A stretch of DNA of 63,367 nt, counting the filler, from Hausera hauseri (Eukaryota), in the NCBI GenBank assembly GCA_046269625.1. It is 13 parts of 13 records of this genome, joined end to end, with 100 filler letters (N's around TTAATTAATTAA, not from the genome) between each part and the next. Parts side by side here need not be neighbours in the genome. Positions count along the whole stretch, not along the records: positions 32,383 to 40,163 come from JBJURY010903979.1; 12 more parts are not named here. One strand, written 5' to 3'. Every line of letters starts with the position of its first letter. The stretch's first letter is position 1. The notes beneath the pieces are model-generated. The model did not search any database. It saw only the letters and a program-made list of their open reading frames with translations, and was not told the origin of the DNA. A program made the position numbers and the translations under genes. Below, in pieces: positions 12,380 to 44,550 of the stretch.

Positions 12380-12925
12380 CTTCAAGAAAAATTCAAGAAC
12401 TTCAATTCTTTTAACCAAATTAGTAAGAGGAGAACAATATACTTTGAAACTGATTCTTCCTGGTCTTAGTATAGCTGGATCAATAAGATATAGTCGGTTT
12501 GAACAAGCTATTATGAAAATTGTCGACTGTTTTAAACTTGAAATACCGTCGCTTTCAGTTAGTAACTGAGTCACTACCCTATCCGTACACCCGTACTGTC
12601 ATGGCCACGTATAGGAGCAGGTGCTTCAAATTCATCAAAGAAGAACAGAATCGGTTGAATACTTCTGGAAAACTCAAAGAATTTTCTAACTTCCTCTTCA
12701 CTTGATACAATATATTTATTTAGTAACTCTGGACCCTTTGTTAATTTAAAATTCATTTTAACTTCATTGGCCAAGGAAACTGCAAGATGACTTTTACCGC
12801 AACCTGGAAGGCCAAAAAGAAAAAGACCTTGGTGTGGCTTAGTCGGACACTTGGAAAATAATAATTGATACCTTAACGACCAGATAAAGAGTTCATGGAG
12901 TTTGGTTTTGGCGTCGTCTAAGCCA
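12380..12925 (-). pseudogene. PEX1: Peroxin-1 AAA ATPase D2 domain, frameshifted and truncated
   Basis: GLPGCGKS Walker A, KGPELLNKYI, FFDEFE Walker B, RGHDSTGV/TDRVVTQLLT (PEX1-typical; restored by adding 1 nt near 12587), DPAILRPGR. Confidence 0.82.
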
Positions 12926-22196: not shown

Positions 22197-22952
22197 CGAC
22201 TTATACCATTAAATGCTTCTATTCCTATTCCGGAATATTGTTTTCTGGTTAGACACAAATCCACGACGTGCTGTGTAATACAAGCAGGACAAAAGTATCA
22301 GTTGCAATTCGATTTGTATAATACGCACCCCAGAGAGCCAAGCACTTATTTGCGTGGATTTCGCCCGAGAACTGTAATATGGGAGCTTCCTTTTCCGACC
22401 ACTACAAGTAGACTATCTACAATTCCAAGCACAACTCTCCTTATTTCGATCGTCACTTCGGACGAAAAGCCCGGAAGCATGCCAATTAAGATTTTGGCAA
22501 AAAGCGATAAAATTGTATTTTACGCGGAAGAGACACTTCTTCGAGACGTCAAGATCAAATGTCGTACTTTGCACACCAACCAAGTCGTGATCCTGAAAAA
22601 GAATAGTCAAGAAGCTGAATGTAGGTCACTACGACCGCAATATGACTATATAATCAGAATTACCGCAAAGGGTAAGAATCTTAAAACTTTTACAGTACGA
22701 ACTCTTGGCAATAGAGTTGAAGTAATACCATATAAAGATATCAGTACTCAAAATGTGTTCACCACGGAAAGTTCTATTGAGCCGAGTAATCTACCGATAA
22801 TAACTATATTCAGTTTGTTAATTTTCGTTCTTGTCATGGTAACAGCGGTGATTTTTCTAGTTTCCAAAAATTGTAGTAAGCGCTGTAAAAATCAAGAGGG
22901 AGATAAACGGGTAAAAGGGTACCGAGACGGACCTTATGATAGCATAACTTGA
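22197..22952 (+). CDS. Single-pass membrane protein with an FN3-like domain (5'-truncated); putative retroelement accessory gene
   Basis: Open frame runs to the contig edge; CRSLRPQYDYIIRITAK..FTVRTL is FN3-like; TM LPIITIFSLLIFVLVMVTAVIFLV; short basic tail ending YDSIT. Confidence 0.6.
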   Translation, partial: RLIPLNASIPIPEYCFLVRHKSTTCCVIQAGQKYQLQFDLYNTHPREPSTYLRGFRPRTVIWELPFPTTTSRLSTIPSTTLLISIVTSDEKPGSMPIKILAKSDKIVFYAEETLLRDVKIKCRTLHTNQVVILKKNSQEAECRSLRPQYDYIIRITAKGKNLKTFTVRTLGNRVEVIPYKDISTQNVFTTESSIEPSNLPIITIFSLLIFVLVMVTAVIFLVSKNCSKRCKNQEGDKRVKGYRDGPYDSIT

Positions 22953-23057
22953 CAGCTACAGGTCGGGTTATCCCATCATCAGACAGAGAAAATGTTTTGT
23001 TTCAAAACGATGATCTGTCTTAGGATTAATCTTTATTTTTATTTCAGCAAAGTAAGT

Positions 23058-25466
23058 ATGACCGAAAAGGCGAAGAATTCATCAGTCACTTCCAATTTCG
23101 ACATCTATAATTTCTTGCAACAACACGTCACTGTCCTCAAGCCGCTATCCAAAAATCTATACCGATAAATTGGAAAAAATTTGAAAAGCCAGAATTATCT
23201 AGAATTCAACCAAGAGAGTAAAATACCGAACGGACTAAAATGGGGTTTAGAAGAGAATAGATTGGTCCGATTATACGCCATGCGAAGTCGAAAAGATGCA
23301 CGAGTATACCTTTTAAAAGATCTAATTCCATATGAGCCAACACATCAGCAATTGTACGTACATGTCGCTGATGGAGAAATTCAATACAGGATGTTAGGAC
23401 AATCCTGGAGCACCCAAAAGGGACAGCAGTGGAAATTTAGCACTTATGAGATATGTTGTTATAGCCTTATGGATTATGCTCTGGAACTCAGAATTGCAGA
23501 CCTGCCGACCAAAATCATGATCGAAATGACATGGCGAACAGAAATGATGAAGCCGCTATCCCGACTATAATATGTACAAAAACCATCTGAAAACGAAATA
23601 TAGCAAAATAGGGAATCTTACAGATTAGTCCCAGATGGCCGAAATACCCGGATATTGGCCGTAAACTATGGAGAAAAGGATGACGGACGGTACTTTCCGA
23701 TCGAGGTATCCATCAGAAATACTAATGGAGAGGAAATCATAAACAAAATAATTGCACCTCGGGCTAGGATAAAAGATACTTTCCCCGACGTTACTGGAAT
23801 CACGAAGCCGCAGCTCGAAAAGGGAAAAGATTTTTTGGAGATCCAAGAAGATATAAGACATTGCTTATATGGATACGTCGTTACCGGATTCCGAGTGCAC
23901 GAAGCGTTGGAGCGACTAGGAATCAGACAAGAATACATAGCCGGAATTCGAGAATTGAGTAGAAACCCAGCAGTAGTGAGCCAAGTGGAAAGTACACTGA
24001 TACGGAAAAGAGGCTGTCTGCTGCCGTCAGCATCCCGTGAATAGCAATTTATGATGCTAGAAGCCATGAATGGCGATCGATTCAAATTCCCTAAGCTTAT
24101 GAGAACAAGCCAAAGGACCAAATTCGTAAAATATATCTATAACTCGTTACGGTGGGATCACGAATGGAAACCCAGAAGTCCCATACAGAATGCAATATCT
24201 GGCAACAACCCCAAGGCACTGATACAGAAATTCCGAAAAGGGTTTAGTGAATACCCTAGCTATCGACAGATCGAAACCCGTAAACATAACCAATTCCGAA
24301 TAACAGTCTATAACAACCCAACGGAAGCCCCAAGCAATCAACAGAAACCATCAACCAGTAAAGCTAAAGAAGTAACAATAAGAGCTGATAATTCAGAGAA
24401 ACCGAAGAGGCAAAAGACAAAGACCTCTTTTCTGGACTACATCAACAAAAAAGAAGCAAGACCAGCAAGTGCCCAACGACAGATAACCTAATCCCGGAGA
24501 AACACATAAAATATCAGAAAGGAGTAGCAAATCAAGAAAAACGGAAAGAAGATAGAGAAAACCAACTAGAAATTACTAAGCCTAAAACCCTTAAAACGGA
24601 AGTTAACGTTCTTCGGAAGAACTGGGAAGAAGATAACCCAATTATCGTCACAGAATTTGGCCAAGTAAAAGAATATAAACGAATCCACGTCATGGCCGAA
24701 TACTATAGCAAAGGGAAAATTAAAGAGACTATATTTTACGTATCTACCGTTCCAAGGCGAATAGTGAGTGGAAACGGATATGCCAGAGAAGACCACGCTA
24801 TTGGCAGATACCTAGCCACAATATTTCAATCAAAAAGTGGCACTAACAGATTAACAATTCCCGTGGATACCCAAGTTAGGATTCAACTAAAAACACAATA
24901 CAAGAAGACTGGAGTACCCGATTTGGACAAACAAGAAATAGTCGAATGGACCTTAGTCGCAGTATCCGATGACCCAAAGAAAAGCTCAATAAACCCAAAT
25001 CAAGAGATTGTACGGATACTTATATCAAGACAAGAAAGGCCTGGTATTTGAGAGAATAGAAGTGGATGAAGACCTTGTGGACATTGATGCGGCCGAAAAA
25101 GAAGAATGTCCCGTTTGTGACGCGGATCTTTATCAATGTTTCGTAGTCCTAGATAATAAGGATTGCAGCCATAAATACTGCCAATATTGTGTGGAAACGT
25201 GGACTCTAAAAAATGGGAAAACGACCTGCCCAGTATGCCAAGCCTACGCTACAAAGCTGAGATACTACTCGAATGGCGAGAACAAGAAAATAGTGGAGAT
25301 ATTGCCCGAACCAGCCACTACATCCTATCATATTAATTTGCAATCACCATCTAACGAAACAGATTCGGAAGCGGACTTACACGGACGAATGCACAGATTA
25401 CGCGGCACCTCTACTGACGCAATGGGCACATCCGAGAGTGCCGTTCAGAATAGACAAATGTTGTAG
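23058..25466 (+). pseudogene. Accessory polyprotein: VHL/BC-box-like region, REX4/ISG20-type DEDDh-like domain, basic linker, C3HC4 RING finger
   Basis: ATG 23058 and the ORFs at 23181, 23655, 24051 and 25008 share one frame (24692-25051 is shifted); TRILAVNYGE..IEVSIRNTNGEEIINKIIAP..DVTGITKPQL..DFLEIQ..GYVVTG; CPVC..CSHKYCQYC..CPVC. Confidence 0.7.
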
Positions 25467-26180
25467 AATGGCCGTTGTAGACTATGAAACCGAAACCGAA
25501 ATTGAATGTAAATAATTACATAGACGGAAAAGTAGAAATAATGACAATGAATTAATTATAAACAATTGAATCAAACTAATTATAGCAATTGAATGATGTA
25601 TACGGATTGTAAATAGAATTGAATTATATTGAATACAGAAAATCAATTTAATTACAAAATTAATTGCATGTAAACAATGGCTCTAAACGTATATATAAAA
25701 GATGTACATACAGTAATCGTAGTAGTTCTTAACCAGAAGCTATTTAACAAGTTGTCAGTTAGTCAGTTGTTATACGATTCTCAGTCAGTATTATTCCGTG
25801 GATCAAAGACTTGAAATTGACGATTATATTCGAACTATTGCTTTTTGATCTGACATTATTTCTGTTGAATCGAAATTATTGTTAAGGTATAATTTTCGTG
25901 TTTAATAAATTTTTGTATCTAAATTTCTAATAGTTTTCCGTCGCTCCTTACGAGGGACTTGCACCATACTAAGTTTTAAAATCATTGTAAAATCCATAGC
26001 TAAGTTGAGAATTTTGTAACTTACGCAATCACCGCATATACAGTACACGCATCTTAAATCAGTGCAAACATTCTAACGAGAGCGTTAGATCTTACCTGCG
26101 CGACTAATATTATCTAAATCTTAAAACTTACTCATTGTTATAGTTGGGTGTTGGATAGGGCCCACCTTCAACTATTAACA
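25459..26180 (+). mobile_element. LTR of the gag-env element (5' boundary approximate)
   Basis: Ends ...TTAACA just before the PBS; TATATAAAA near 25692; AATAAA at 25904; 3' part similar to 32383-32634; candidate TGTT start at 25459. Confidence 0.8.
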
Positions 26181-26183
26181 TTT

Positions 26184-26201
26184 TGGCGACCCTAGAAGGA
26201 C
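26184..26201 (+). promoter_or_regulatory. Primer-binding site, tRNA-Arg type
   Basis: TGGCGACCCTAGAAGGAC, 3 nt after the LTR; complementary to a ...GTCC...GGGTCGCCA tRNA-Arg 3' end. Confidence 0.75.
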
Positions 26202-26259
26202 AGTTTGCACTTGCTAGACTTGACTCTTAGTGAAAAGTAACGACGTATTAGCGATCAGA

Positions 26260-28085
26260 GCGGTAATTATGATCGCCGAAACGATCGATACAGCAATCAG
26301 AACTTTGATAATAGTTGAAATAGCTTTTCTAATAAATCAAATTACCAGACAGATAAACGCCTAAATGGCTCTAAAAACTTTAGTCGACAAAATGACAACC
26401 GGAGTTATGATAATCGTCAGTATGAAGACCCCAGACAGACTCCACCGCAGCAAGGTTACAATAGAAATCCGAGTAGACCGAAATCTCCATTAAACGAAGA
26501 TGGCCGACAAAGGGTTGGAACAAATGGCAATTTAGTCTGTTTCACATGTGGACAAGAAAGACACATAGCGAGGTCCTGTCCGAATCAGCGAAGTGTCGAA
26601 TTTGTGGAACCTAGTAAAACCAATGTAATTAAAAACGAAAATTTAGAAGCAATTTACGGTGTTCGTAGAGACACAGGAATGATTATTGAGATACAGAATT
26701 TACCACGTTTCTTAAAAGCCCAGCCTGAGACTAAGGACCCCAAAGTTTTAGTGGCTAGAAATGAATATAAGCACAAATTACGACTAATGGAAGTTTACCA
26801 CGGCCTGCGTGAACCAGAAAAGGAATATGAACATTCCATTGCCCCACCAAGGCTAACTGTTATGGTTCGGAAAAAGAACGCTCCTACGATAAACAAAGAA
26901 CCAATCGAATCAGGGATGCCTGAAACTCCGGATAAGGAAGATTCAGAACCTGAGTATGCTATAGAAAAGGTAACCAAGGAGACAGAGCCCGACGAAAAAG
27001 AAGAATTTATCGAACCGCTTATACTTAAAATCACCAAGAATAGAAGCCGTAGCCCATCACTGAGACGGACACGTAAGGATCGTTCGAGATCCCCAATGAT
27101 CAAAGAGAAATCAAGGACAGAGATACGGAATTCGCATTAGAGAGTGAAACGGAGTGTGCCCCACACATTTCGAAAATTAATTTAGTTACGCCCAGCGAAA
27201 TGGGTGAGCTGATGAAATCTATAGATGAAATAAATGATGTATGTCGCTTACCTGCAAGCGAAGAGGAAACAGAACGAGAAGAAAAACTCGATCCTAAAAG
27301 TGGAAAATTAGGCGCTGGTGGAAAAAATGCAGAGAAGTTAAAAAGAATAAGGATGAATTATCGCAAACCAGAGGTATTACGACAGAATCTAAAGAAGCTC
27401 AAAGCAATGAACGAACAAGTGGATATTTCTAGTAAAGAACAGCAGTTTGTAGAAAGATTATATAAAAAATATGAAACTATGTAGCGAAGGGAAACTAAGT
27501 GAATCTATAGATTTGGATCAGCCAGAAGTGGCAAAAAACCCTAGTTCATTGAAAACGTGAATTAGAACGCTGGTTCAAAAGACGAAATTTCCGGAGACAT
27601 GGGATAAAACTACCCAAAACATTGAAACTAGGGTCAACCAGTCTCAGACGTTATTAGCCACATTAGAAGCCAACCCGAAATTAAAAAGAGCAGCACGTAA
27701 TTTGGAGCGTGTCATGGACGAATTTAGATTCATCATAGTTAAACAGGTAAAAAAGAAGCCGGTCAAAGAACGAGATGCAAACGACTTAGAGATATTGGGT
27801 ATAGATATATTAGATATTCCGCCCTTAACGGAAATGATAAAAATCGCTTTTACTGCGACAAGGCAATATACTAGTCTGGAAAACCGTCTTAAAATAAAAG
27901 TCGAAATGCGATCGCAAATATATAGTCTAAGGAATAGGATCATGCACCCAGCTGATATAGAAACACAAAAAATAATTCTTACTTGTATCCTCGAATTCGA
28001 TGAATATAAAGATGAGTTTGACTATGCCTACAGGATTATCGATTTTATTAGAGGTCCAGATGACGAGTTAGATGACGCCCGCAAA
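26260..28085 (+). pseudogene. gag: gag-env element copy A: capsid deleted; CCHC knuckle in frame with unknown region X
   Basis: CFTCGQERHIARSC at 26538-26579 reads straight into VEPSKTNVIK; collinear with 33786-35610. Confidence 0.85.
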
Positions 28086-28185: not shown

Positions 28186-28690
28186 GTCACTGAGGCATAT
28201 TTCTCTTCTCATCTCTGTGTTGTTACAACATTGGAACAATAGTTCCTCTTCCAGAGCCTCGCATGAAAGATTGTGCTTCATTACTTTGTCCAGAAGTTTC
28301 TTGATTGTCTCGAAGTAAACATCTGGTTCCGCCCCATTCTTTTTGTACTCGAGCGCTTCTTTTAGATCTTAGCATAGCGTTGAGGGTCGTGCGAAAGCCT
28401 TCTGTAGTCGGTTTTGGTATCCCGTTATCCTTGGATCTACTGCCTCGTATCTTTCTAATTCATCTTCCTCCAAGAGGCATTCAATCATGATTTCCCGCTT
28501 CTCCGCCGAAGTGTTAATGTATTTAAAGAATTTTTCACATCCTTTAATGAACTTCTCCACGTCGTCGCCTTTCCTAAATTTGTTAGGCAACAATTGATTC
28601 GCGAAAATATCCGTCCTGGCGTCATCGCCATGTTAGCTGCGTACGCATCCACGTTGTCCACGTCATCGCCCAGCTTGGGTAGAGTTGGAA
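28186..28690 (-). mobile_element. gag: Gag fragment of a separate LTR retrotransposon
   Basis: LPNKFRKGDDVEKFIKGCEKFF..YQNRLQKAF; possible LTR end/PBS (TACA-AC-TGGTG) on the minus strand near 28760-28770. Confidence 0.55.
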
Positions 28691-29219
28691 AATACCCACT
28701 CTCTGGTATGTTTGCTGAATCAGAATTGGATCGTTTGAAATTACTTATTGAAAAGTAAACACCAGTTGTAGAAAATTTTTATTATAATCCAAAATACTTA
28801 TTTGGAAACAAATTTTCCCAAATTATAAATTCAAATCAAAATTTTAATATTACACTTTTAAATTAAATTTTTTTTAATTTAAAAATTGTTGTAACTTAAA
28901 TTTAGAATTTGCGTTCTCCATTATATCCTCACAGTTATAGCACTGGACAACAGAAAGAGTCAAATTATTTACTCTTTGCAATAAAACCTACCACTTTACA
29001 ACAAAATGAGACAGAACGCATCAGTTATTACCTTGACATAACGGAACTCAAACAACCAATTAAGGAATCTGGAAGCTATGCTCAATCTCAGGATAGTTTG
29101 ATGGTTATGTTATCAAACAGAACAATAACAAACTATTGTGCAGCAAGCTATATAGACGACACAGACGATCATAATGATATACTAACGTTCCTTCAATTAA
29201 TAAGAGGTAATTGGCCTCA

Positions 29220-32200
29220 TGCGACAGCTCATTTTGGCACTTTTGATTTAAATGCAATGATTGAAACAAGAGCCAGTATTTCGCTAATAGCACGGCATGC
29301 AATACCTAACAAATTCCAGTCTCAAATAAAACTAGTTCCAAAAGATTGTACAGGAACTATTTCAGTTTTCCACTAATGTTCAAAACCTTATGGATACTGG
29401 AAATATGAACTACTGATTTGTGAACAAAGGATTAAAGTAACACAGGATGTAATGAATACTTATACCCTCGATGCATTATAGGGATGAATGTATTACGAAA
29501 ACTCAAAGGGTTCCATATTAACCTACAGTCAAGATCTATCTGTCCTAATAAAGATATTCCCAGAAATTATGAAAAAGCAGATATTTGGCTAGAACATATT
29601 AAGAAAATACCGCCGAATTCTAGGATGGTTATTCACACTAGAATAATATTTTCGGATAACAGCATCATTGAATTCGTACCACAAATTATTCTAAATGGAC
29701 TTATATTATCACACTACTGTGTCAATGCGATAGGAGGAACAACTCCTATTGAAGTATTGAACCCATCGCCAAAATACATCACATTATTTCCAAGAATGAA
29801 GATTGAACAAGCACATGAAATTATTCGTCACGCTGAAATTGACAGAAAGCTTGCAGCAGTTTCTTTAGATATGGAAAAGAAAGTCGAAGATATGCTCGAT
29901 ACTGTTCTCGTAAAGGCGAAGAAAAATTTATCAGTGGAACATTTAAATAATTTCTCAGAACTAATTTATGAATAAATTTATATATTCGCTAAAGATGAGA
30001 CCGACATTGGGCGAACCGATTTAGTCGAATTCAAAATGTCATTCTTGACTGATCCTCAGACAGGAAAGGAGATAGATTTATTGCAACAACCTATATTAAA
30101 GTGATACCCACATCCTAAAGCACTCCAAAAGGAAGTTTAGGAACAAATACAAACAATGTTGGATAAAGGCATCATTGAGACTAGTCAGTAACCGTAGCCA
30201 TCGCCTAGTTATGGCAAGAAAGTCAATACTACAAAACATCGTTTGTGTGTAAACTACTTTACATTGACTAAGCATCTCATGAACCGTGCTTATCCAATAC
30301 CGTGAATACGACATATTATCGACGAACTTAAGGACTGTAAGTATTTTACTACTTGGGATTTGCAGAGTGGATTTTGGCAGATTCCCGTAGCTGAAAGTAC
30401 CATTAGAAGACTGCGTTCAAAACACATGCAGAAGTTTACCAATTTACACGCATGCCATTCGGGCTAAAAACAGCATTAACGTTCTTTCAAGAATTTATCC
30501 GTCTAGTCCTAAAAGAAGTACGTGGATTGTCGTGTACAGACGATATTTTGATTGCAGCAAAAACTTGGTCAGCACACTTAATGGGATTACGAGAAGTATT
30601 CGACCGGATTAAACTTGCGAAATTGAAACTAAATCCAAAAAAGTGTGAATGGCGTAAAAACAAAGTTCGATATCTTGGATTTGTAGTTTCAAACCAAGGA
30701 ATATCTACCAGTCCGGATTTAATAGCCAAAATATTTAAGTATCCCCCACATACCAGTTTTCACGAAATGAGAGTTTGGTTGGGATTTGGAGGATTTTACG
30801 CCACTTTTAAAGAAAATTTTGCCGAAATTAATCAACCACAATATAAACCGTTGAGAAAGGACTGGAAATGGGAATGGACCGAAAAAAATCAAACTTCTGA
30901 TGAAATTCACCGACGTTTAGTATCTGCGGCAATGGTGAGATATCCAGATTTTTCCTTACCGTTCATCTTAAAAGCAGACGCCAGCATCAAGCAATCAGTT
31001 ACATTTTGCACAACAGAACCCGGACGAGTTAATTGAACATGTAATTGCTTATGGAGGACGCAGTTTAAACAACGCTGAGAGAAAATACTCTACCACAGTT
31101 AGAATTGCTAGCAATACGCGACAGATTACGTCACTACAATTATTATGTTTATGGACACAAAATTATGGAAGTTAGAACTCTTGAATTATGATGTTTAGTA
31201 TAGATACCGACCGGAAAGGAAAATACGGATGCAGACACAATTTCGCGATTATCATATGAGAAAATAGTAGTTTTGGTACATAAGCCAAGGGTTACACAAT
31301 AATATAGGTAACTGAATGAAAAAATAATTAACGAGATGCTACATGAACAGCAACAAGTTCAGGTTCGAAATATCGAAACCTTATAAAATCAAGATCCATT
31401 TATTGTTCAAGTCAAACAAATAGTAAATGGACAAATGACTGAGCAAGTGTCAAATCAAATTCAGAAATTTTATGAGAAACGAAAGGAACAATTAGAAATT
31501 GAAAATGGCATTCTAAAACTCAATGTCGGAGAACGAAAACTCATAATCGTACCTAATATAGCAATTAAATCTGTGATGTTACAAGAGCACGATTCGCATC
31601 TAGCAGGTCATCCATCTTTAAATAAGACACTAAAGCATATAACCGCAAAATATTATTGTCCTCAGATGAACAAGCATATTAAAGGATGGGTACGCTCTTG
31701 CAAAATGTGCGCAACTCGAAAAGATAAAGGATTTCGTGCAAAACCATTTCTAGGAAGCCTTCCTGAAGCACGACAACCTATGGAAGTTTGTTCAATGGAC
31801 ATTTCGGGACCTTTTCCAACATCTGATTCAAGATATAAATATATTCTGTCACTCGTAAATTATTATTCGAGATATGTCGTTTTGGTCCCATTGAAAAATA
31901 TGACAAGCAGTACTGTCGCAGAAGCCTTTTCTATCAAATAGTATCCGTATTAGGCATGCCGAAACAGTTGTTAACTGACCGCGCACCATATTTTATCAGC
32001 AAATTTTTCGAGAAATTAACAAAGATTTTTCAATGCAAACATTTGTTAACTACATCCTACTATCCACTATGTAATGGTATGGTTGAAAGAATGAATCGAA
32101 CAATTCAAGGTATTCTGTCCACAAAAGTCGTCCATGATCAGAAAAATTGGAACCAACATTTAAAAACAACTTCATACGCAATAAACACTACACCTACGAA

Positions 32201-32282
32201 AAGCACCAATCATTTACCATTTGAATTAATGTTAGGACGATTACCATTATTACCATTAGATACTGAATTATTACCATCTTCC
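29220..32282 (+). mobile_element. pol: Ty3/gypsy pol (PR, RT, RNase H, IN), decayed
   Basis: AMIETRASISL; MPFGLKTA..CTDDILI; FILKADAS; HDSHLAGH..CKMC; MDISGPF; LTDRAPYF; NGMVERMNRTI. Confidence 0.93.
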
Positions 32283-32382: not shown

Positions 32383-32634
32383 TCTTATAGTTTCCGTCGC
32401 TCCTTACGAGGGACATAGAAATGCTAATCTAAGGATTAAAATCACATTAAACTTTATAGATAGGTCGAGAGTCGATTAAACTACGCAAGGCACCGCAAGC
32501 AGTACACGCATTCTAAATTTGTGCAAACATTCTATCGAGAACGTTAGAACTTATCTGCCTAATATTATTGTTAAATCAAATTTCATTACTGTTATAGTTG
32601 GGTGTTGGATAGGGCCCACCTTCAACTATTAACA
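32383..32634 (+). mobile_element. 3' part of the 5' LTR of gag-env element copy B; PBS at 32637-32654
   Basis: Homologous to 25930-26180, with an identical ATAGTTGGGTGTTGGATAGGGCCCACCTTCAACTATTAACA end; PBS TGGCGACCCCAACAGGAC. Confidence 0.88.
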
Positions 32635-32922
32635 TTTGGCGACCCCAACAGGACAGTTTGCACTTGCTAGACTTGACTTTTAGTGAAAAGTAGCGACACA
32701 TTAGCGATCAGCGTTAACACATCAAATAATTGATTGCAGGTTGTCGTGAGACTAAAATTTGGGATTATAAAGAAACCCTCAATATTATAACGACATATTA
32801 TTTAATCAAGAGCGAATATTGATAAACATAGGTCAGACGATAGCTTAAATCTTATTCTAAACGGTAAGGAGAGTATTAATTTTCGCGAAACACGTAATAA
32901 AGTATATAGACAAGATAAGACG

Positions 32923-34110
32923 TTGATTAGTCGCACTTTATCTGAAACGAATTTAGCTAACACTGAACCTATTAATTTAAACTCTGTTGGAAAGCATACT
33001 GAATTTAAAGTTCCTGATAAGAGAATTAGACCTCGTAAAATAATTGAGCAAAACCTAATAAACGTTGAAAACATGGTTGAAAATCGGGCAGTAGCTCAGA
33101 AACTGGATATTTTTACATTTGGCTGTCTGAATTTGCCAGCATATAACGGAGACCCGGACGGACTTAACGAATTCTTAAGGATTTATAAGTTGCAAGCAGA
33201 AGGTGCTGGACTAGCAGCTAACGTGATGATTGAACGTTTGTCGTTATATTTGAAGAATCTGGCCGCTGATGCCTATAGTGAGCTCACTGATGATGAGAAG
33301 AAAACGTGGTCCTCCCTGGTAGGAGTTCTGAACCGAAAATTATTGCCGACTGTAACTCCGCAACAAAAATTTATGGCTTTCCAGAATAGAGCACAACAAA
33401 AGGGTGAATCCATAACCCAATTCGCTTTTGCCTTAAAGAAATTGGCAAACAGTTACTCAAGCACCTTAAGAATCGCAAACATAGCCAAGGCTAAAAACGA
33501 AGCAGAACAAAAAGCCGCAGAAAAGGCAGGTCCTCCAGATTTGGACGTCATGATGATGACACAGTTAATAAACGGTATTTGGTCTAAAGACATACTAAAG
33601 CAACTGATTCTAGCGCGCCCGGAGAACTTTGATAGGACATTGCAATTAGCTTAGGACTTGGAAATTGCACTAGAAACAACGACAGAAATGGAAGAAATAA
33701 TGATCAAAGTAATCGATGTAATAGAAATCGGAATAATAGAAATGATAGACGAATTAACAGGAATTATGGGGATCGGAACAAGAACGGTAATTATGATCGC
33801 AGGAACGATCGATACAGTAACCAGAATTTTGATAATAGTCGAAATAGTTTTTCTAGTAAATCAAACTATCATACGAATAAACGGCTAGATGGCCCCAAAA
33901 ATTTTAATCTACAGAATGACAGCCGGAATTACGATAACCGCCAATATATGGATTGTAGGCAAGCCCCGTAGCAGAAAGGCTACAATAGAAATCTTAGTAG
34001 ATCGAAATCCCCAATAAACGAAGATGGCCGACAAAAGATCGGAAAAATGGCAACTTAATCTGTTATACATGCGGACAAGAAGGACATATAGCGAGATCCG
34101 GCCCAAACCC
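32923..34110 (+). pseudogene. gag: Ty3/gypsy-type Gag (capsid, RN-rich linker, zinc knuckle), copy B
   Basis: LPAYNGDPDGLNEFL..LYLKNLAADAY..QQKGESITQFAFALKKLA; CYTCGQEGHIARS at 34061. Confidence 0.9.
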
Positions 34111-37100
34111 TCGAAGTGTTTCGTTTGTCGAACCTAGTAAAATTAATGTGATTAAAAACGAAAATTTAAAAGCAATTTACGGTGTTTGTAGAGACACGGG
34201 TATGGTCATCGAGATACAAGATTTACGACGTTTCTTGAAGGCCCAGCTTGATACTAAGGACCCTACAGGTTTAGTGGCTAGAAACGAGTACGAACATAAG
34301 TTACGATCATTATAAGTTTATCACGGTGTGCGCGAACCAAAAACGGAATATAAACGTTCCATTGCCCCCCTAAGGCTCAGTGATATGGCACGGAAGAAGA
34401 ACATTCCTACGGTAAGTAAAAAGTTAGATGAAATAGGAAAACCTAGGACTCCGGACAAGGTAGATTTAGGTGTAGAATCCGAATATACTATAAAAAGGGT
34501 AACCAAGGAGTCTGAGGCCGACGAAAAAGAAGAATTTCTGGAACCACTGATACTTAAAATTACGAAAAATAGAGGCCGTAGTCTATCATTGAGACGAAAA
34601 CGCAAGGATCGCCCGAGATCCCCGATGATTAAGTAGAAACCGAGCACAAAGATAGAAACCGAAATCGCTTTAGAAAACGACATAGAGTGCGCCCCGAACG
34701 TTCTAGAAATTAATTTAGTTACGCCCAGCGAAATGGATGATCTGACGAAATCTGTAAATAAGATAAACGATATATGTCCTTTACCTACTAGCGAATAGGA
34801 AACAAAACAGGAGAAGAAACTTGATCCTGAAAAGTGGAAAATTAGACGCTCGTGGAAAAATGCCGATGAATTAAAAAGAATGAGGATAAATTGCTTCAAC
34901 CCAGAGGTAGTGCAACAGAATCTAGATAAACTCAAGGCAATGAATGAACAAGTGGATATTTCCGGCAAGAAACGGCAGTTTGTAGAGAGATTATATAAAA
35001 AGATGAAATTATACAGCGAAGGGAAACTAACTGAAGCTATAGACTTAGATCAACCGGAAGAAGTGACAAAAGAAAAACTAGACAAATGGAAATGCGAGCT
35101 GGGAGTCTGGATGAAAAGTGGGATGAAAACTCCAGAAGCGTAGAATAAAACCACCAAAGATATTGAAACTAGAATCAACCAAGCTCGGTAGCTATTAGCT
35201 ACATTTAAATTAAAAAGAGTAGTACGTAATTTGGAGCGTGTCATGAATGAAATTAGATTTGCAATAGTCGAACGACTTAAGGAAAAACCGGTCAAGGAAC
35301 AAGATGCACATGACCTAGAGATGTTGGGCATAGATTCGATAGATATTCCACCCTGAATGGAAATAATAAAGGTTACTTCGACGGCCTCAAAGCAATATAC
35401 AAGTATGAAAAATCGTATTAAAATTGAAGCCGAAAAACGGTCGCAGATATATGGTTTAAGGAATAGAATTATGCACATCAATAACGAAGAAACACACAAA
35501 ATAATTATGGCTTGCATCCTCGAGTTCGATGAATACAATGACAAATTTGACTATGCCTGCAGGATCATCGATTTTATTAAAGGTTCAGATGATGAGCTAG
35601 AGGACGCTCACAAAATGTTAAACAAAGCAATATTGGCAAAGCCAGAAATCGCTAATCAGTTGAAAGAATGGTCCAAAGTAATAACAAGGTTGAGTGCATT
35701 GATAAACAATCGGAAGAACGAATTTCCAGAGAGCGAGCCTACAGTGAAAAAGCGATTAGAAAAAGACTCCCGAAATCTAGATACTATGAAGGCAGAAACT
35801 GACCTCCGAACTCAATTTGAGGCATTACGTCAATTGGATTTTATGGAAAATAAACAAGAAATGGCGATACTAGATGATATATATATAAGATGATCGAAGA
35901 AACAAACTTCATGCGGAAACGAAACGCGACTTGTGATTTCTATCCGCGATTAAGAGATATCCGGCTGAAAGGAATACGGTATTTGACAACCAAACCTATC
36001 GAGGAAATCTCAATCCGTGACCTTAGAACCTTGGACTTTTGTCCCGAATCTCGGTCAATGGTGGAAGAAGCGGTGAAGTTCTTACACCAGCCACAAGAAT
36101 GGATAGATGGGACGGATCAAATGCATCAAATGAACTGAATAAAATGAAGAACGACCACCGCCTTAGCTTCGAAGAAATCAAATTTGTAAAAAAGCTATTA
36201 GATGCGATAGATCCAAATTCAAAAAGTATTAACGAGATGTATGAATTAGCGTTGCTGATGGCGGAAATGGCAGAAATTAATGACGAGAAACTAAGACAAT
36301 TGTTGCAGCAGATACAACAAGTCGAAGAAACTTGCATTAAAACGAAACAGAGAGCAATGAGATTAGACAAACTCGCTAGAGAACTCGACGTCTATAAGAA
36401 CAAATATGCCCTTAACGAAGCAAAAAAGGCTGACAAGTCATAATTCGTGCAAAGCTGGCAAAGATATGTCACGTCCGAACTAACAAGCTATCAAGAACAA
36501 TGACTGATTTCTGCAGAAGAATTATGTTCGTTGTTAACGCTGCTACACCAAACTTCTGCTAATGGGCGCTGTTTTCGAACGACGAAAATGGTCCAAATGC
36601 AACAAAAACTACAAGAACTCAGAAAAACTACATGGACCGCAGGTGTGAATATGCCAACTAATGCACCGTCAAGTGACTATGAACTGCCGGATAATGAGAA
36701 TGAAACAGAATAGGAGGCATATTTAGATGCAGTGATTGCCGAGAACCCTAAAACTCCCATACGACGGAGAGAAACGGAGGTATATTTTTCGGACCAAAGA
36801 TTTAACGTAGGAATGCTCCTAGACCCAATACAAACCGAGAAATATTTAATTCAGTTGATCGAAGTAAATCTCACGGAAATTTAATTATGACAGTTGGTCC
36901 CCACTCTAACTAAATTAGCTAGCGAAGGTACGATATATAGTACGGTACCTAAGCTTTTACTTAAGAAGCATGCTAAATTCTTAAAGAAAAAGGCAGAGGA
37001 GACGATTCCAGTAAAGATAGTATCTGACTGGATGGCCGAGAAGGAGCACGAGTTCACTACGCGCTCCCGCGTGAAAGACGTAATATGGTGGATAAGAAAT

Positions 37101-37947
37101 AATGGGTACAACCAGGAGTTAAACTACAGACTCTATTTTAGAGGGAGAATACTAGAGGAAACGGAGCTGTTAATAGAAGTCAGCATTATTCCAAGTGAAG
37201 CAAACCGTATAGTTGTAGCCATTCCTATCGAAGAAACAAAAGAAGAAGCCATAAGAAATTCTAAAGAGAAACAGTGCGTAGGATGAATCATAGGAGTTCG
37301 AGATGCAGTAATGTATTTAGAGTACTTGCAGACAGACAGAGATAATGAGCAATACGATAAGAATTTAGTACCCATTAACGATAACGTACTTGCTGTAACA
37401 AAACAGAAGCGTCTTGTCGGTAAGCTGCGGAAAATACGAGAGGAAATCGATTACAATGGAGATTTAATCAAAGAGTTGAGGCAAATGTCCATACCGACCT
37501 TCAGTACGGATAATGAGGAACTGAACGAACTTATGAAGAATTTGATTCAAATAGTAAACTACTCTAGTCTCGGCGGTGATATATTGGATGAGAAAGAGAA
37601 GGCCATATCTAATGCCGCAAGGGCCATGAAGGGCCTCCGGTGTAAATTATTCAGAAGTACCTTAAGCGATGAAGCGGTGATTGAGAAAATTATGGCCGAA
37701 AATAACATAGAAGAATTAAGAAAAGTGTTGCTATATCTGGCCATTAAAACTAACCCAAACCGAGAAAATGAATTCAACAAGACTACTAGTTTAACACGGA
37801 AGGCTGCCAGGAAACTACCTCGAGAGGTGAACTGGTCTAAGTTATTCGAAAAAGAAGAAGAACATCAAAGTAGATCATTCTTCGGTAACAATAAATTCAA
37901 AGATCTGCTACGAAATGCAACCGGAAATCACAGAAGAAATCAGTCGA
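34111..37947 (+). pseudogene. Unknown charged, helical region X fused to gag, including a ubiquitin-like domain near 37000-37220
   Basis: Consecutive ORF fragments homologous to 26604-28085 and 52750-54293; no PR/RT/RH/IN motifs; ETIPVKIV..RVKDV..YRLYFRGRILEETELLIEVSI is UBL-like. Confidence 0.75.
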
Positions 37948-40061
37948 ACTGGCTAATCAACTTTTTGACCATGATGGTGTTAATAAGACAAATGGGTGCG
38001 GTTGCAGTATATGATTGCAACAAATTTAGACTTGGCCAAAAATATTCAATAATGGACTTGGAAATGTGCGAAGACGCGAGACCACACAAATTAGAAACAA
38101 AAGAGAAAAGTTACGTCCTGTATCAACAACGCAAACTAGTCACGTTGGATGGAGTAGAATGTATGTTGCAACAATATCGCAGCATCTTTCATTGTGGCCT
38201 GGTACACGGACACTCGTCAATAATCAAGCCAACAACCCCGCCAATTCCGATGAACTTAGAATGACAGCATTGTAAGCAAGCTAGAGAAACTGGGAAAATA
38301 AAATGAAACGGCATGGAACTGGAAATGCAACAAAACAAAATAATCAGAGTATACAAAGTAGCGGCAGAAAGACTAGATATGCACACCGGAAAATGATTAG
38401 AGTCGAATATTTTAGTAGTAGACTTTTATGAAACCGAAATGCGCATACAGAAGGTAATGTTCCATAGTGTTACTAAACTTTACACCGAGAACTATAAGTG
38501 TCACATTCAAGATGGCACATGCCCGTTCCGAAGTTTTATAGTAATTTGGGAACCTCCAGCCAAGACCGATTGCAACTTTATCAGAATTAAAGAACTTAAA
38601 TTCAATGAGACGACAGGAAAACGGTACATAAGTAGTACAGAAACTTATTTTAAAACACTAGAAGATGTAGTTAAACAGTCCACACCAACGATACGGATCT
38701 CTGATACCCACGGACTAAAGTTTGTGAAGAAAGATGTACTCACAAGATGTGACGTTATACTGTACGCTACCAACTATGAAGTATTTTTAGTCGTGGAGAC
38801 GGAAATAAACGCCAGAACGTTCAAGCTCGAGATTCAGGACATCCGGATTGAAGGCTATTTGAAGAACAGAGACAACTATTTCTACTATAAGGGACAAGCG
38901 GGAATAGCCGAGCTATACCACAAAATGATAACCAATGACTGCAAGTTGTATTTAGAAATAATAAGAACTAAGCTGGCCCTAATATATGCCAATCTCGAGT
39001 TGGCATCACCAATAATTCCAATGAAGGAAGGTGTTTTTGGACGGGTAACCCGAGAGGTCTTATTGACATATGAGTGCGAGATGAAAGACGTACAGATTAA
39101 CGTGGAAGAGAAGAGGTGTATACAAGAGCTTCCCGTAATATATCAGGACGTACCTAGAAAAGTAACACCAATTACCAGAGTATTGTTGTCAAATTCTACC
39201 CAACCGACAATCCTGAAAGATTGTAAGACCAGCCTGGGCCAGCCGATGTTCAGAAGAAGTGAAACCGACGGGGTAATTTTACCGAGCAGCGGTATTATCG
39301 CACCACCTGCCAAGTTGACAGGGACAAACTTAATAAAAGGAATAACCAATGATAAATTTTAAGATACAGCCGCGAAAGGTATTTACCGACCAAAAGAAGT
39401 AGAGGCGTTCAGACAATTTCTCGACTTCCCTTGTCAGCGTACGCGCGAACTGAATCGAGCAATGCACACAATATTGGAGGATTCGTGCTACCAAGCGAGA
39501 TGGGAGTCATTACTCGGTTTTGGCTATTATAAAAAGCTAACTACGGAAATACTGTACAAAATTTGGGGAAGGTTCCTGATATTCGGACAAGCCGCGTCAG
39601 GATTTCTAACGATATACTTCTTAATTCAACTGGTAAAGGCTATAATTCAAGCAATCATAAATGGATATGAGATATTTACTTTGACAGGATTTTCGTGCAA
39701 AATTTTAACGGCTATTATTACACCTTTCGGCAAATTCTTAAGGGCTTATGAAGAGAGTAAATAAAAAGCAGATGCGCAGCGACACGTTGGCTATCATAAT
39801 CGAAAACGTAAAAGACGCATATTTGATTATAGGCAAAAATTCGTAGGTAGTAAGACACGAAGAAATAATTCTGACGATGACGAGCCTAAGGGTGGAGACG
39901 TCATCTCTAAATTGAACAGGCACAAAAATTACTTTGTTATAAAACTACCATTACCAATATTGCCGCCAACGGCACCTACATATGAAGATTGCGAGAAACA
40001 ATCTATGAGCTCGTGCCAGACAGACGTCTATCGGAAGCCGTTTAGTTTAGAAGACCTGTAA
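37948..40061 (+). pseudogene. env: Envelope glycoprotein, chuvirus-like class III type, copy B
   Basis: Internal signal WLINFLTMMVLIRQMGA then VAVYDC..YSIMDLEMC..Q..ECMLQQYRSIFHCG..HSSII; C-terminal WGRFLIFGQAASGFLTIYFLIQLVKAIIQAIING..TGFSCKILTAI, the pattern of Chuviridae G proteins. Confidence 0.8.
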
Positions 40062-40263
40062 GGTTCCACCTTACAAAAAGAAAAAATATAAAAATCACAA
40101 TATAAAATCACGGATTCATGTACAAACAAAAATTAAATTATCAAAATAAAATTAATATTCAGCNNNNNNNNNNNNNNNNNNNNNNNNNNNNNNNNNNNNN
40201 NNNNNNNTTAATTAATTAANNNNNNNNNNNNNNNNNNNNNNNNNNNNNNNNNNNNNNNNNNNN

Positions 40264-43200
40264 GGCTGCACCTTCAAACCAAACACGAACGACGGAAGTA
40301 CTACCTTTTCTTTTAATAGTCTTCCTAGTTCACCTTTTCAGAAAAATTAAATTTCTCACCAGAAGTCACGGCAAACTCTAGCAAAGACACTACTTTATTT
40401 TCTGAACGCCGACACGACTCTTTTGATGTCTTTACTCTAAAGGCCGCAATAACCACTCCTACAACGCAATCCTTTGACTTCCTAATTGATACAGGTGCAA
40501 CGATTTCCTTATTACCACAATCTTTTCCTGTACAAAATTCACCATTCCGAATTAAACCCTTATACACCGCTTTAGGTCAACCGCTGCACATTTCTGGAAC
40601 GGCTAAATTATCCTTTACCTTACCAAAATTTCCTTCACCGTTCCACTGGACGTTCACAGTTGATAATGTCTAGACGGCAATACTACGGTCCGATTATTTA
40701 TTACATTATAATTTATTGGTCGTCACTTTTACACTTCGTACAAAAAGAGGACGGTACTTTTAGACATGCGGTGACTACCACCAGTTAAAAAACTTGACAA
40801 TCATGGATGCATACCTCTTGCCACTCATCAAGGACATCCTACATCGCCTTAATTAAACTACCATTTATTCGACCATCGATTTGGCTAAAGCATACCACCA
40901 AATACGAGTGACATCCGAAGACATAGAAAAAACTGCTCTCACTACTCCTTTTAGCCTCTACGAGTACCTGTTTATGCCTTTCGGTTTGCGAAATGCTGCA
41001 CAGATCTTTCAGCGACATATTGACTCAATTCTCTCAGATTTTCCGTTTGAGCACCCTTACATTAATGATATTCTGATCGTTTCGTCTTCGGTCAAACAAC
41101 ACGAGGAACACCTCCGCGCAATATTCCAACGCCTTTACCACTATAATCTACAAGCCAATTTCGAAAAATTCCATTTTTTCAAAAAACGCATCAACCTTTT
41201 AGGCTACGTTATTTCACCAGACGGCCACTCTCCTCAACCAGACCGAGTTGAAGCCCTTAAAAATATCCTGTTACCACATACGACCACCGAAATGCGCAGC
41301 TTCCTTAGTACACTACACTTTGTACATAAATATGTATCATATTGCTCCACAGTTACAGCACCATTTGCACACTTGAGCGGTGGCAAAAAACATCAGCCAA
41401 TCCAGTGGACACCTGAATTGGTAGAAAAATTTGATAAGTTACGCGAAGGAATTAAGACCGTCGATATTCTCGCTTTCCCCATACCTGATGCAGAACTCAT
41501 CCTTACTACAGACGCTTCAACTACTGCGGTAGGTGCTGTACTCCACCAGATCTACAAAGGAGAAAATCAACCGCTAGAATTTTTCTCGCGCAAGCTAACA
41601 TCCCCTGAAACCAGATATTCAACGTTCGATCGAGAGTTATTGGCCATCGTTCTTGCTTTAAAGCATTTTTCCCACCTACTTGTCGCTCGCCATTTTACTA
41701 TACAAACCGATCACAAACACTTACTTAACATCATGGCTATAAAACATCCTTCCACACGCCAAGAACCACAGATATCATACTTGTCGACATTTAACTTTTA
41801 CATAAAACATATTAATGGGGTTAATAATTTGATTGCCCACTTTGTATCTAGGTCGGTTAGTTCGATTAATTTTTCACGGATTTTTACGCAAGTTTAACTT
41901 CAACAGAACCAGCTACCTCAAGACATGCTTAATTCTTTCGAATCTTGCACAATTTTTGACGGCGTGGCTTTAGACACTTCCAAACCAGTTTATTCCGTAA
42001 TATTTCTCGCCCCATCATTGCAAATGCAAGCATTTAATGCAGTACATTCGCTACATTATCCTGGTGCTAAAGCCACTTTTTGTTTACTCAATCGACAAGT
42101 AATATGGCCGTCAATGCGTTCTGATGTACAGGCATGGGTTAAGGAGTTTGTGGCATGCCAAAAATTCAAAACAACTAAGCATTTAAAGCCATCACTGTTC
42201 CACTTCCCCTGCACAAAGCGTTTCGAGTCCGTGAATATCGACATCGTTGGCCCTCTTCCTCCAGATAACGATCATCAATTTATTCTCACCATGATGGACC
42301 GTTCCTCGCGATGGCAAGAAGCCATTCCTCTGCGGGGCACGAACACCGATACCATAGCTGACGTTTTCATTTGCACATGCATTAGAAGGTTTGGATCACC
42401 TTGCTTCATCATCACGCAGCAGGGTCAACAGTTTGAATCCAACCTGTTCAGATCCATTGTTAACCAATTCGGGATCCATCATATACATACTACGCTTTAC
42501 CATCCCCAATCGAATGTCCTCCTAGAGCGCCTCCACCGAACATTGAAAACGTCACTATGAATCCTTGCAGAGTCCAACACTAGTTGGACAAACCTTCTTC
42601 CGTTTGTTTTGCTTGGCTGGCGGAACACTCCGTCCACTTCTACGGGATGTTGACCACCTGAAGCCTTATTCGGAGCTCCTGTACGATCATTTTTCGAGCT
42701 AACTGCCCTAGACGACACTCCTACAGATGAAACGATACGGGTGGCGCAAAATCACTTCCTTACGGTCAGCAAAGATTCGTTCTGCAGGATACTTCACAAA
42801 GACAAAACATATTTACCCGAAGACTTGTATTCGGCAAAATTCGTATAGCTAAAAAATCAAACACCGTGCGGTTTTCAGCTGCGGTATCTGGGGTCCTATA
42901 AACGGATACAGCTGCATTCACATAATGCTATTATCTCTAAAGACGGCAAAGAAATTACAGTACATATTACCAACTTAAAGCCCGCCTTCTTTGTCGACGA
43001 TACTTCACCAATCGACACGTCAACCTCCATTTTCACTCCCACATTTCCTGCTGTTCCTTTATCTGTTGCTACACCAGTTTCACCTCCTTCTTTTGCTCCT
43101 AGTTCTGCTTCATCATTTTCCACAACTTCTGCCTCTATTCCTATCTCTCTCATTTCTCTACCACTCCCTCAGTCTCATTTTCTACTTCTGCACTTTCACC

Positions 43201-43617
43201 TAACACAATTCCACTTTCTACTTCAATTTTCTTCTCTCCTTCTTCATCCACCACTTCACCTTTTGTCACTCCTTCGTCTTCTAACACTCTCTTGAATACC
43301 TTTAACCATCCGTCTCTAACCATCTCTCTCTCTTTCACCTTCTTCTTCCCTTCGTTCTGACTCATCTTTGCACGACACAACACTCACAACAAAATCTGAC
43401 AACTTTCCCCCCAACTTCAACCCCTGCAAACAAACACACCGCATAAAGACAAAACACACAGAGTCACATTTAGCAAGTATAGCAGGGTAAAATCAGTAGA
43501 AGGCACTCAACATCTTGTTCACACTAAGACCAACTGACACAGGCACTTTTTGTTTAGCGATTTTTTCTTTCCCTCTATTTTGATCTTTACAGTTTTCACT
43601 TTGTAATGGGGGGGTGA
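40264..43617 (+). mobile_element. pol: Ty3/gypsy pol (PR, RT, RNase H, IN) with Ser/Thr-rich tail and PPT
   Basis: FLIDTGATISLL; YLFMPFGLRNAAQ..YIND; TTDASTTAVG; NIDIVGPLP; GPY-type motif near 42890; G-tract at 43608-43614. Confidence 0.93.
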
Positions 43618-43727
43618 TGTGGTGCCCATCGCGGCCGGTGCCCTTTGGCCCATTTGGTCGGGCACGGCCGGGCGTCCGCTGTCACCGCGTCGGATCAATA
43701 ATCGGGTTCGACTCCCCGCGTTGAGAA
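43618..43727 (+). mobile_element. Start of the 3' LTR, containing a GC hairpin and a tRNA-Asp-like segment
   Basis: TGTGGTGCCC right after the PPT; 3' boundary not identified. Confidence 0.5.
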
Positions 43728-43764
43728 TATTTGAGAATATTTGCTTATATTTTTTTGAAGCCTA

Positions 43765-44320
43765 ATGTCTAATGAATTTTGGGATGACTTTGACTTTTTA
43801 TCAGATGACATACGATTTGAGGAAGTAGGAAGATACATACAAGCGAACCCTCAGGATAAAATTGTACGCGAAACATTTAAATCAGGAATCGACTTACGGG
43901 AAACAATTTGAAGTTCGAATTACCGTTCTGCGCGACCAGACCAATCGTACTAAAGGCTGGAAATCACCAAATCCTTCATCAACAAAGAACAGTGATTATT
44001 CCAAATCGACATCTTCTAAATTGTTAAAACAAACACGAATAAATGTTTCTAAGGAAAATTATCAGCATTACAAAAGACAAAAGTATTTATCAGAATCATC
44101 ATCGGATTTTTCATATCACAAAATCGATTCTCGTAATAAACGATCAAGAAATGAAGCAAGCTCAAAAGATCGATCTGATTATGATCACAAAAGAACTCGT
44201 TCCAGATGTAGATCACGATCTTCGAAAAAATCCAAGGATTTCTACAGAGCGGATTCACGAATCAAGAGCTCGAAATCCAAGTACTATTATAATTCCAAAG
44301 AAAAATCACGCTGTCAATGA
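43765..44320 (+). CDS. Arg/Ser/Lys-rich low-complexity ORF of unknown identity (probably frameshifted)
   Basis: RSRCRSRSSKKSK-type composition; no domain recognised. Confidence 0.3.
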
Positions 44321-44550
44321 ATCCGAATTATTGAAACAGTATAGAAGTCGTCATCATTATTGAGAAGAAGAATTTAAACGAATATTGATGTTTGAATTTA
44401 ATTCAAAGTCAATTAAATAAATAGCCAATATAAAGTCGAGAAATTCCAAANNNNNNNNNNNNNNNNNNNNNNNNNNNNNNNNNNNNNNNNNNNNTTAATT
44501 AATTAANNNNNNNNNNNNNNNNNNNNNNNNNNNNNNNNNNNNNNNNNNNN

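Follow-up and report, generated by a model that had tools for sequence, protein, structure and literature searches.

A predicted class III glycoprotein in frame behind a Ty3/gypsy-like gag in contigs of Hausera hauseri

Organisation from the LTR to the Env tail

The window analysed here is a stretch of 63,367 nucleotides (filler included) from the Hausera hauseri assembly GCA_046269625.1. It consists of unlinked contigs strung together with N-linkers, and adjacency across a linker implies no linkage. The contig with the glycoprotein feature (copy B) occupies positions 32383–40163 and comes from record JBJURY010903979.1. Two further copies were recognised, copy C as the contig 50283–54293 on the minus strand and copy A at the end of the contig 22197–28085. 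Copy C aligns to positions 36797–40056 of B with approximately 67–70% identity (67% for DNA, over 3.3 kb); its ubiquitin-like module, signal peptide, env and tail occupy 50283–53883 (minus strand), the final 187 codons being open to the contig end. Copy A (25926–28085, plus strand) carries an LTR end, a primer-binding site, a zinc knuckle and the linker up to the contig end, with about 1.1 kb of gag missing. The family of copy B is highly repeated, as 14,367 contigs of the sequencing run X1, possibly the source of the window itself, match B at ≥80% identity and cover all 30 bins.

Copy B is read on the plus strand. It starts with the 3' part of a 5' LTR (32383–32634), which is truncated where the contig begins, has AACA as its last bases and shows an 80% match to positions 25926–26258 of the contig of copy A. 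The primer-binding site at 32637–32654 is likely of the tRNA-Arg type, with 9 terminal bases matching the ends of the Arg(CCG) and Arg(UCG/UCU) tRNAs as tabulated in supplement 1, sheet 2, of PMC13524379. The terminal 45 bases of the LTR (32590–32634, and 26136–26181 in copy A) are bounded by an 11–12 base inverted repeat, which forms a hairpin in copy A, whereas for B pairing with the primer-binding site is predicted as an alternative.

The capsid region of gag lies at 32806–33654. Library profiles match it weakly (Retrotrans_gag with E = 0.013, dArc2 capsid with E = 0.07) and a profile of the gags of four relatives matches positions 33142–33453 strongly (E = 4e-14), and judged by these profile matches the gag of B is of the Ty3/gypsy type. 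A single zinc knuckle of the CCHC type, itself decayed, follows at 34061–34102 (zf-CCHC, E = 9e-6). No further knuckles were found in the three frames of B that were scanned, and one was seen in copy A, although decay could hide others. The next 2.6 kb or so (34200–36830) encode a long charged linker with 35% K/E/R/D, frame-shifted, containing stops and assigned to no family, and positions 33781–35614 show a 78% DNA match to copy A. When the linker of B was searched with Pfam for a Smc/MATH/midasin region, the matches were of the coiled-coil type and all below threshold. PDB sequence searches with the linker and with the frame read through its stops as X gave chance-level matches only, and a word-based homologue search with the linker gave no match.

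A single frame, with stops read as X, runs from 36027 to 40061 in B and contains 11 stops before the final one. Within it, a helical and ubiquitin-like module common to the gag-env-pol relatives described below is found at 36840–37226. A profile of this module from 11 relatives matches B with 36 bits (E = 1.4e-12), the next two matches being the same module in copy C, and this match ties B through its linker to the clade of env-plus-protease proteins independently of env. The ubiquitin label is based on Atlas leads (ubiquitin/SUMO-like clusters at 0.87–0.88 for the module, a lead only), on a weak Pfam ubiquitin match in the relative P0170 (E = 0.018) and on resemblance by eye. A conserved, probably helical domain follows at 37440–37880, in the position of the BCL2-like domain of the planarian element Burro. 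No Bcl-2 domain was found in this part of B with Atlas, and hhalign gave a probability of 0.2%, both being weak tests; a profile of five Bcl-2 sequences, again a weak test, had no match in B or C. Weak Bcl-2 matches occur at the pre-env position in the relatives P0009 and P0169. The fold model of the pre-signal domain is of low confidence (pLDDT 35) and its structural matches are meaningless.

The frame of B continues with a hydrophobic run (37953–38009), the motif AVYDC (with the Tyr codon at 38010), a Cys-rich ectodomain, an anchor and a tail. By hydropathy, the signal-peptide-like segment extends over 37941–38006, with cleavage predicted by eye after the Ala at 38000 or 38006. An earlier reading made from the sequence alone had placed a chuvirus-type glycoprotein at 37948–39760, introduced by a hydrophobic stretch and AVYDC and conserved in copy C. 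The glycoprotein is borne out by the profile and model matches given below; the Cys-rich ectodomain, the membrane-proximal motif, the hydrophobic stretch and AVYDC are present in B, but copy C reads TVYDC.

The ectodomain (38001–39557) contains four in-frame stops and 15 Cys; the stops in the env of B are at 38262, 38304, 38394, 39360 and, in the tail, 39762. The Pfam profile PF24664 (Monjiviricetes_fusion) matches the env of B over profile positions 7–610 of 653 with E = 1.6e-47, and each of the three open pieces of env matches this profile by itself. The corresponding matches in copy C have E-values of 6e-13 and 2e-39. An AlphaFold model of the ectodomain of B, computed with X at the stops and 107 aligned rows, has a mean pLDDT of 88; the underlying alignment was built from PF24664-type matches, and the model therefore leans towards this family. 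Its best matches among solved structures are herpesvirus gB ectodomains (E = 8e-13, TM approximately 0.44, 11% identity), and its best matches among predicted viral structures are chu-like glycoproteins (E = 5e-30, TM up to 0.71). The fold of the model is of class III, as the sequence-only reading required.

The membrane-proximal segment, the transmembrane anchor and a second hydrophobic segment lie at 39558–39730, with hydropathy peaks at 39579–39659 and 39672–39728, and the membrane-proximal motif in B reads WGRFLIFG. The tail (39731–40061) contains the stop at 39762, a basic run, a PTAP motif at 39966–39977 and the final stop at 40059, which lies within an 8-bp hairpin (40057–40075). PTAP is kept in the tails of both copies, being located near 50680 (minus strand) in copy C. 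A P[TS]AP, PPxY or YPxL-type motif is present in 15 of 21 spacers between env and protease compared with 2.0 in shuffled spacers (maximum 8 in 2000 shuffles); as the sequences are related, this excess is evidence of conservation and not of function. The motif itself suggests that the Env tail may recruit ESCRT. In B the hairpin at the final stop is followed by an A-rich run, and copy C has neither. The ending of B (40057–40163) could be the end of a subfamily, an inserted repeat or a site of translational control.

Comparisons between copies B and C demonstrate purifying selection. The pN values are 0.17 for env (622 codons), 0.17 for the pre-signal domain (182 codons), 0.27 for the ubiquitin-like module (139 codons) and 0.24 for the tail (69 codons), and pS is saturated in all four (0.76–0.94). 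Saturated pS combined with low pN indicates that B and C derive from long-separated lineages and that the whole frame has been constrained.

Relatives and the end of the frame

A HMMER search with the C-terminal env frame of copy C as the query found 401 proteins at E ≤ 0.001, 150 of which were listed. The best 18 of the 401 matches (E ≤ 3e-24) are 26–35% identical and include 5 fragments within env. Among the 13 non-fragment relatives in this set, the anchor is followed by an aspartic protease in 11 (recognised by Pfam in 10 cases and by the DTG motif in P0007), and 5 of these 11 extend to reverse transcriptase (RT); the other two, P0009 and P0016, end at the env anchor. The relatives have the pol order PR-RT-RH-IN, and in P0017 a single frame encodes gag, env, protease, RT, RNase H and integrase. 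A continuous gag-env-pro-pol frame was reportedly also found by Sacco et al. 2022 in nematode endogenous retroviruses. A second search returned 8 new proteins with the protease after env in all 8; it admitted only proteins of at least 2664 aa and for that reason favours protease-bearing relatives. A word-based homologue search with the 422-aa frame of copy C gave no match among longer proteins, and a metagenome scan with copy C yielded 0 relatives among 114 pattern matches.

The relatives come from metagenome assemblies, and one of them is filed in a bacterial bin. The gag-env-pol class has many unnamed intact relatives of 3.7–4.8 thousand residues in public metagenome assemblies, some of which carry ubiquitin-like, Bcl-2-like and ankyrin cargo. 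Several aspartic-protease-like repeats, ankyrin repeats, C2H2 fingers and a C-terminal membrane cassette were observed in P0151, P0004, P0008 and P0166–P0173, which reach up to 4,844 aa.

An absence of pol cannot be read from B or C, because both lie on contigs that end after env (270–550 nt beyond the env stop or the membrane anchor), and no 3' LTR was found after env in either copy before the contig end. In 14 of the 18 relatives, with four mis-anchored ones excluded, the catalytic Asp of the protease is located 131–392 residues after the membrane-proximal WG motif. From the same point there are 165 codons to the stop and 199 to the contig end in B, and 269 codons to the contig end in C, the last 187 of them open. 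An xYP motif precedes the catalytic Asp by 31–57 residues in 15 of 18 relatives; the contig of C ends 26 codons after such a motif, which is a hint only given its three letters, and no pre-protease xYP motif was found in B. It is likelier that a protease follows env in both B and C, past the contig ends. The sequence-only reading had proposed that the arrangement would suit an element without a protease of its own. This proposal is not upheld, as the relatives encode their protease after env, beyond the point where both contigs break off. Nor is the signal peptide an argument for it, because signal peptidase would free only the N-terminus of Env, and Gag, RT and integrase would still depend on the protease of the element.

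We consider it probable that copy B is a decayed, contig-truncated member of a multicopy Ty3/gypsy element with a class III env behind gag, most likely a Burro-like gag-env-pol element whose protease and pol are predicted to lie past the contig end. Several observations speak against this interpretation. Neither B nor C is physically joined to a pol, B closes with a stop and a hairpin at a place where the frame of C remains open, P0009 and P0016 likewise end at the env anchor, B has a single knuckle and no detected Bcl-2 domain, and the best pol of the window (44551–50182) falls in no supported RT clade with the relatives.

The same ending could mean that copy B represents a pol-less, non-autonomous gag-linker-env subfamily mobilised by an autonomous gag-env-pol partner, or that pol is placed in a separate frame downstream. 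Such a scenario would account for a frame that ends at 40059 within the hairpin and gives way to the A-rich run, and for the missing xYP motif in B, and it has a parallel in P0016, which stops just past the anchor. The X1 contigs still cover the last 110 bases of B (40052–40163, at a summed depth of 850–2600, which is not a copy number), and this indicates that the ending is repeated and not unique. At least one X1 contig among those listed departs from the sequence of B near 40040 and continues differently, and the existence of two continuations makes a pol-less subfamily possible. However, the same picture would arise from a repeated insertion or a recombination point, no LTR or polypurine tract is seen in the approximately 100 bases after the stop, C stays open, and 11 of the 13 long relatives run into the protease. 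On balance we judge a pol-less B, or one with a separate pol frame, to be unlikely. We find quite unlikely a more elaborate version in which B would be one of many copies of a satellite that lacks pol and accompanies a giant gag-env-pol element, and would form an enveloped particle without an enzyme of its own. Host signal peptidase would then separate Gag from the class III fusogen, Gag would be held at the membrane by the cleaved signal anchor, and ESCRT would be recruited by the PTAP motif of the Env tail and not of Gag.

Release of the glycoprotein

The position of env in the frame raises the question of how a luminal fusogen leaves the middle of a cytosolic gag-pol chain. A treatment of the release mechanism in such elements was not found in the literature searched, mostly non-subscription journals. 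The strings "splic" and "polyprotein" are absent from the main text of PMC13524379, where Env release is not treated.

The hydrophobic run is not a chance feature of the region preceding YDC/FDC: it is present in 22 of 22 sequences (B, C and 20 relatives) compared with 4 of 363 upstream control windows. P0003 and P0166 were excluded from this count as near-duplicates, and the spacer of P0017 was mis-anchored. A small residue is usually found four positions ahead of the Tyr, and the frame is open across the junction in 20 of the 20 relatives examined. Together with the profile and model matches, these data support a chuvirus-like class III glycoprotein downstream of a Ty3-like gag and in frame after a signal-peptide-like segment. 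Inspected by eye, B and C have no start codon in common ahead of the hydrophobic core. With up to 1,365 in-frame residues upstream and no shared start codon, the most economical interpretation is an internal signal cut by signal peptidase, a type of signal that is established in the polyproteins of flaviviruses and alphaviruses. The idea that Env is freed by signal peptidase and not made through a spliced mRNA, which the sequence-only reading had put forward, is plausible on these sequence features.

In the mechanism that we propose, genomic RNA would be translated into one long polyprotein, of which Gag, the charged linker and the ubiquitin-like module would remain cytosolic. The internal signal peptide would thread the ectodomain into the ER, where host signal peptidase would cut just ahead of VYDC. 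The anchor would halt the transfer and the chain would return to the cytosol; with a single passage through the membrane at each of the signal and the anchor it would come back to that side, in keeping with the basic run of the tail. The basic, PTAP-bearing tail would then lead into the aspartic protease of the element, which would free the Gag products, RT and integrase.

Alternatively, env could be expressed mainly from a spliced or subgenomic mRNA of its own, the in-frame fusion being incidental. Drosophila gypsy makes its env from its own spliced mRNA, and Env may well be needed in amounts that differ from those of Gag. Met codons are also available, inside the hydrophobic core in B and, as a single codon, 23 codons upstream of the core in C. 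Nevertheless, an upstream start codon shared by the two copies and a clear polypyrimidine acceptor are both lacking by eye, the upstream frame is as constrained as env, and the openness of the junction in all 20 relatives also speaks against a separate message. A dedicated env mRNA as the main source of Env appears very unlikely.

Kinship of env and comparison with known systems

An env tree of 117 rows, with 36 dropped (33 short fragments, and P0002–P0004 by a span filter), groups B and C in a clade of 15 rows with SH-aLRT support of 100. The clade consists of B, C, 9 env-plus-protease rows, P0009, P0016 and 2 further fragments. Two named chuvirus G rows, a BEL/Pao-type row (P0058, with DUF5641) and a row with integrase followed by env are found on the other side of the tree, P0058 being far from B and C. 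The tree is unrooted, was computed in quick mode with SH-aLRT only, and has 98 unlabelled rows of 117 and two named chuvirus rows, and it accordingly speaks to kinship and not to the donor.

A recent independent capture of chuvirus G, or a chuvirus insertion inside a gypsy element, is highly improbable and largely refuted: the best structural matches are glycoproteins of chu-like viruses, named chuvirus G proteins occur among the sequence matches of env, and chuvirus G insertions near gypsy fragments have been described (PMC10084718), but the env of B is 17–21% identical to stand-alone G proteins against 26–34% to the polyprotein clade, it nests with support in that clade next to a ubiquitin-like module common to the clade, and none of the ORFs scanned matched a viral polymerase or nucleoprotein family. 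In a non-retroviral chuvirus insertion, G would fall among the Jingchuvirales G proteins and share no retroelement context; the env of B instead belongs to the polyprotein clade, with which B also shares the ubiquitin-like module. The independent capture by a Ty3/gypsy-like lineage suggested by the sequence-only reading is therefore not supported as a new event, since env nests in an existing clade of env-then-protease polyproteins and Ty3/gypsy elements with such an env and such an order have been published (PMC6431247, PMC13524379).

The first of these sources describes Burro/GYPSM1, giant gypsy-like elements of planarians with env between gag and pol, and gives the order of Burro as gag, Smc, Ubi2/SUMO-like, BCL2, env and PR, with the env matching fusion glycoproteins of the mononegavirus type (PMC6431247). 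Copy B shares with them a Ty3/gypsy Gag with a knuckle, a long linker, a ubiquitin/SUMO-like domain and an env in frame with the linker upstream, and in 11 of 13 long relatives env lies between gag and protease. Bcl-2-like and ankyrin domains, as in Burro, occur in the relatives of B. There are also differences from the published description. Burro has two or three CCHC knuckles, whereas copy B has one; Burro has Bcl-2, MATH and midasin-like domains, and no such signal was detected in B; the Burro region has an HHpred match to gypsy-Env (F-type), whereas the env of B models as class III. Burro exceeds 25 kb and has BIR and ankyrin domains; the copies studied here were read from contigs of 4–8 kb. 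Because B differs in knuckle number and in the Bcl-2 tests, and because pol, size, LTR length and host are beyond the reach of the contigs, we do not file it as Burro. Copy B, which would function in the manner of a Burro-type gag-env-pol element, is Burro-like and not proven Burro, and it is set beside Burro by description.

Errantiviruses of the GAG-ENV-POL order with an HSV/gB-type env are reported from Nematoda, Bryozoa and Platyhelminthes by Chary and Hayashi (PMC13524379), who also report gB-type env on Ty3/gypsy elements across invertebrates and argue that it was acquired anciently. The same source describes 114 gypsy elements found with a BEL/Pao chuvirus-like glycoprotein as bait, and cites non-canonical nematode endogenous retroviruses with a flipped env-pol order. 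These errantiviruses resemble B in their class III env, with the ectodomain between a signal peptide and an anchor or between two hydrophobic segments, and in the presence of an LTR and a tRNA primer-binding site (in B a 5' LTR end and an Arg-type site); the elements of PMC13524379 are intact and copy B is decayed. The Anakin elements of mosquitoes are BEL/Pao elements with chuvirus G (PMC7642597) and thus carry the same glycoprotein family on an LTR retroelement. They have a BEL/Pao backbone with env after integrase, whereas copy B has no BEL/Pao Gag match and no pol between gag and env. The architecture is already known, and with B and C the class gains a family that is divergent and decayed. 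Their interest lies in the release mechanism, in the late-domain-like motifs of the Env tail and in a possible pol-less subfamily. Two features offer testable handles, namely the internal signal peptide with its strict conservation and the motifs of late-domain type in the Env tail.

The window contains several further remnants. Positions 700–4000 are an N-riddled low-complexity stretch of the (GTT)n type, in which long ORFs are artefacts. An AAA ATPase fragment (Pfam AAA, E = 1e-5) at 11918–12925 on the minus strand is decayed and apparently lacks introns; we take it to be peroxin-like, and a piece of gypsy pol lies on the same contig. Three more decayed Ty3/gypsy pol regions (28186–32282, 40264–44450 and 8925–10200) are further from the gag-env-pol clade. 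Another gypsy pol (44551–47160, plus strand) has an env-tail-like start by eye, PSAP and a protease 168 codons in, and is interrupted downstream by a piggyBac-type remnant, again by eye. The RT on its contig (44551–50182) is about 50% identical to that of the gag-env-pol relatives, compared with 31–37% for the two other long pols of the window. This pol, the best in the window, was considered as an env-linked candidate and rejected: a tail profile missed B and C, which served as the positive control, and in an RT tree it formed no supported clade with the relatives.

The region 5' of the LTR of copy A (22197–25466, plus strand) contains a type I membrane ORF, remains of an unassigned ORF and a RING-finger ORF (24993–25463; zf-RING_2, E = 7e-6). 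The membrane ORF weakly resembles the post-integrase cassette of the relatives (E of about 0.01–0.02, the best match in the window), and the region may represent the 3' accessory part of an element of this type, arranged in tandem.
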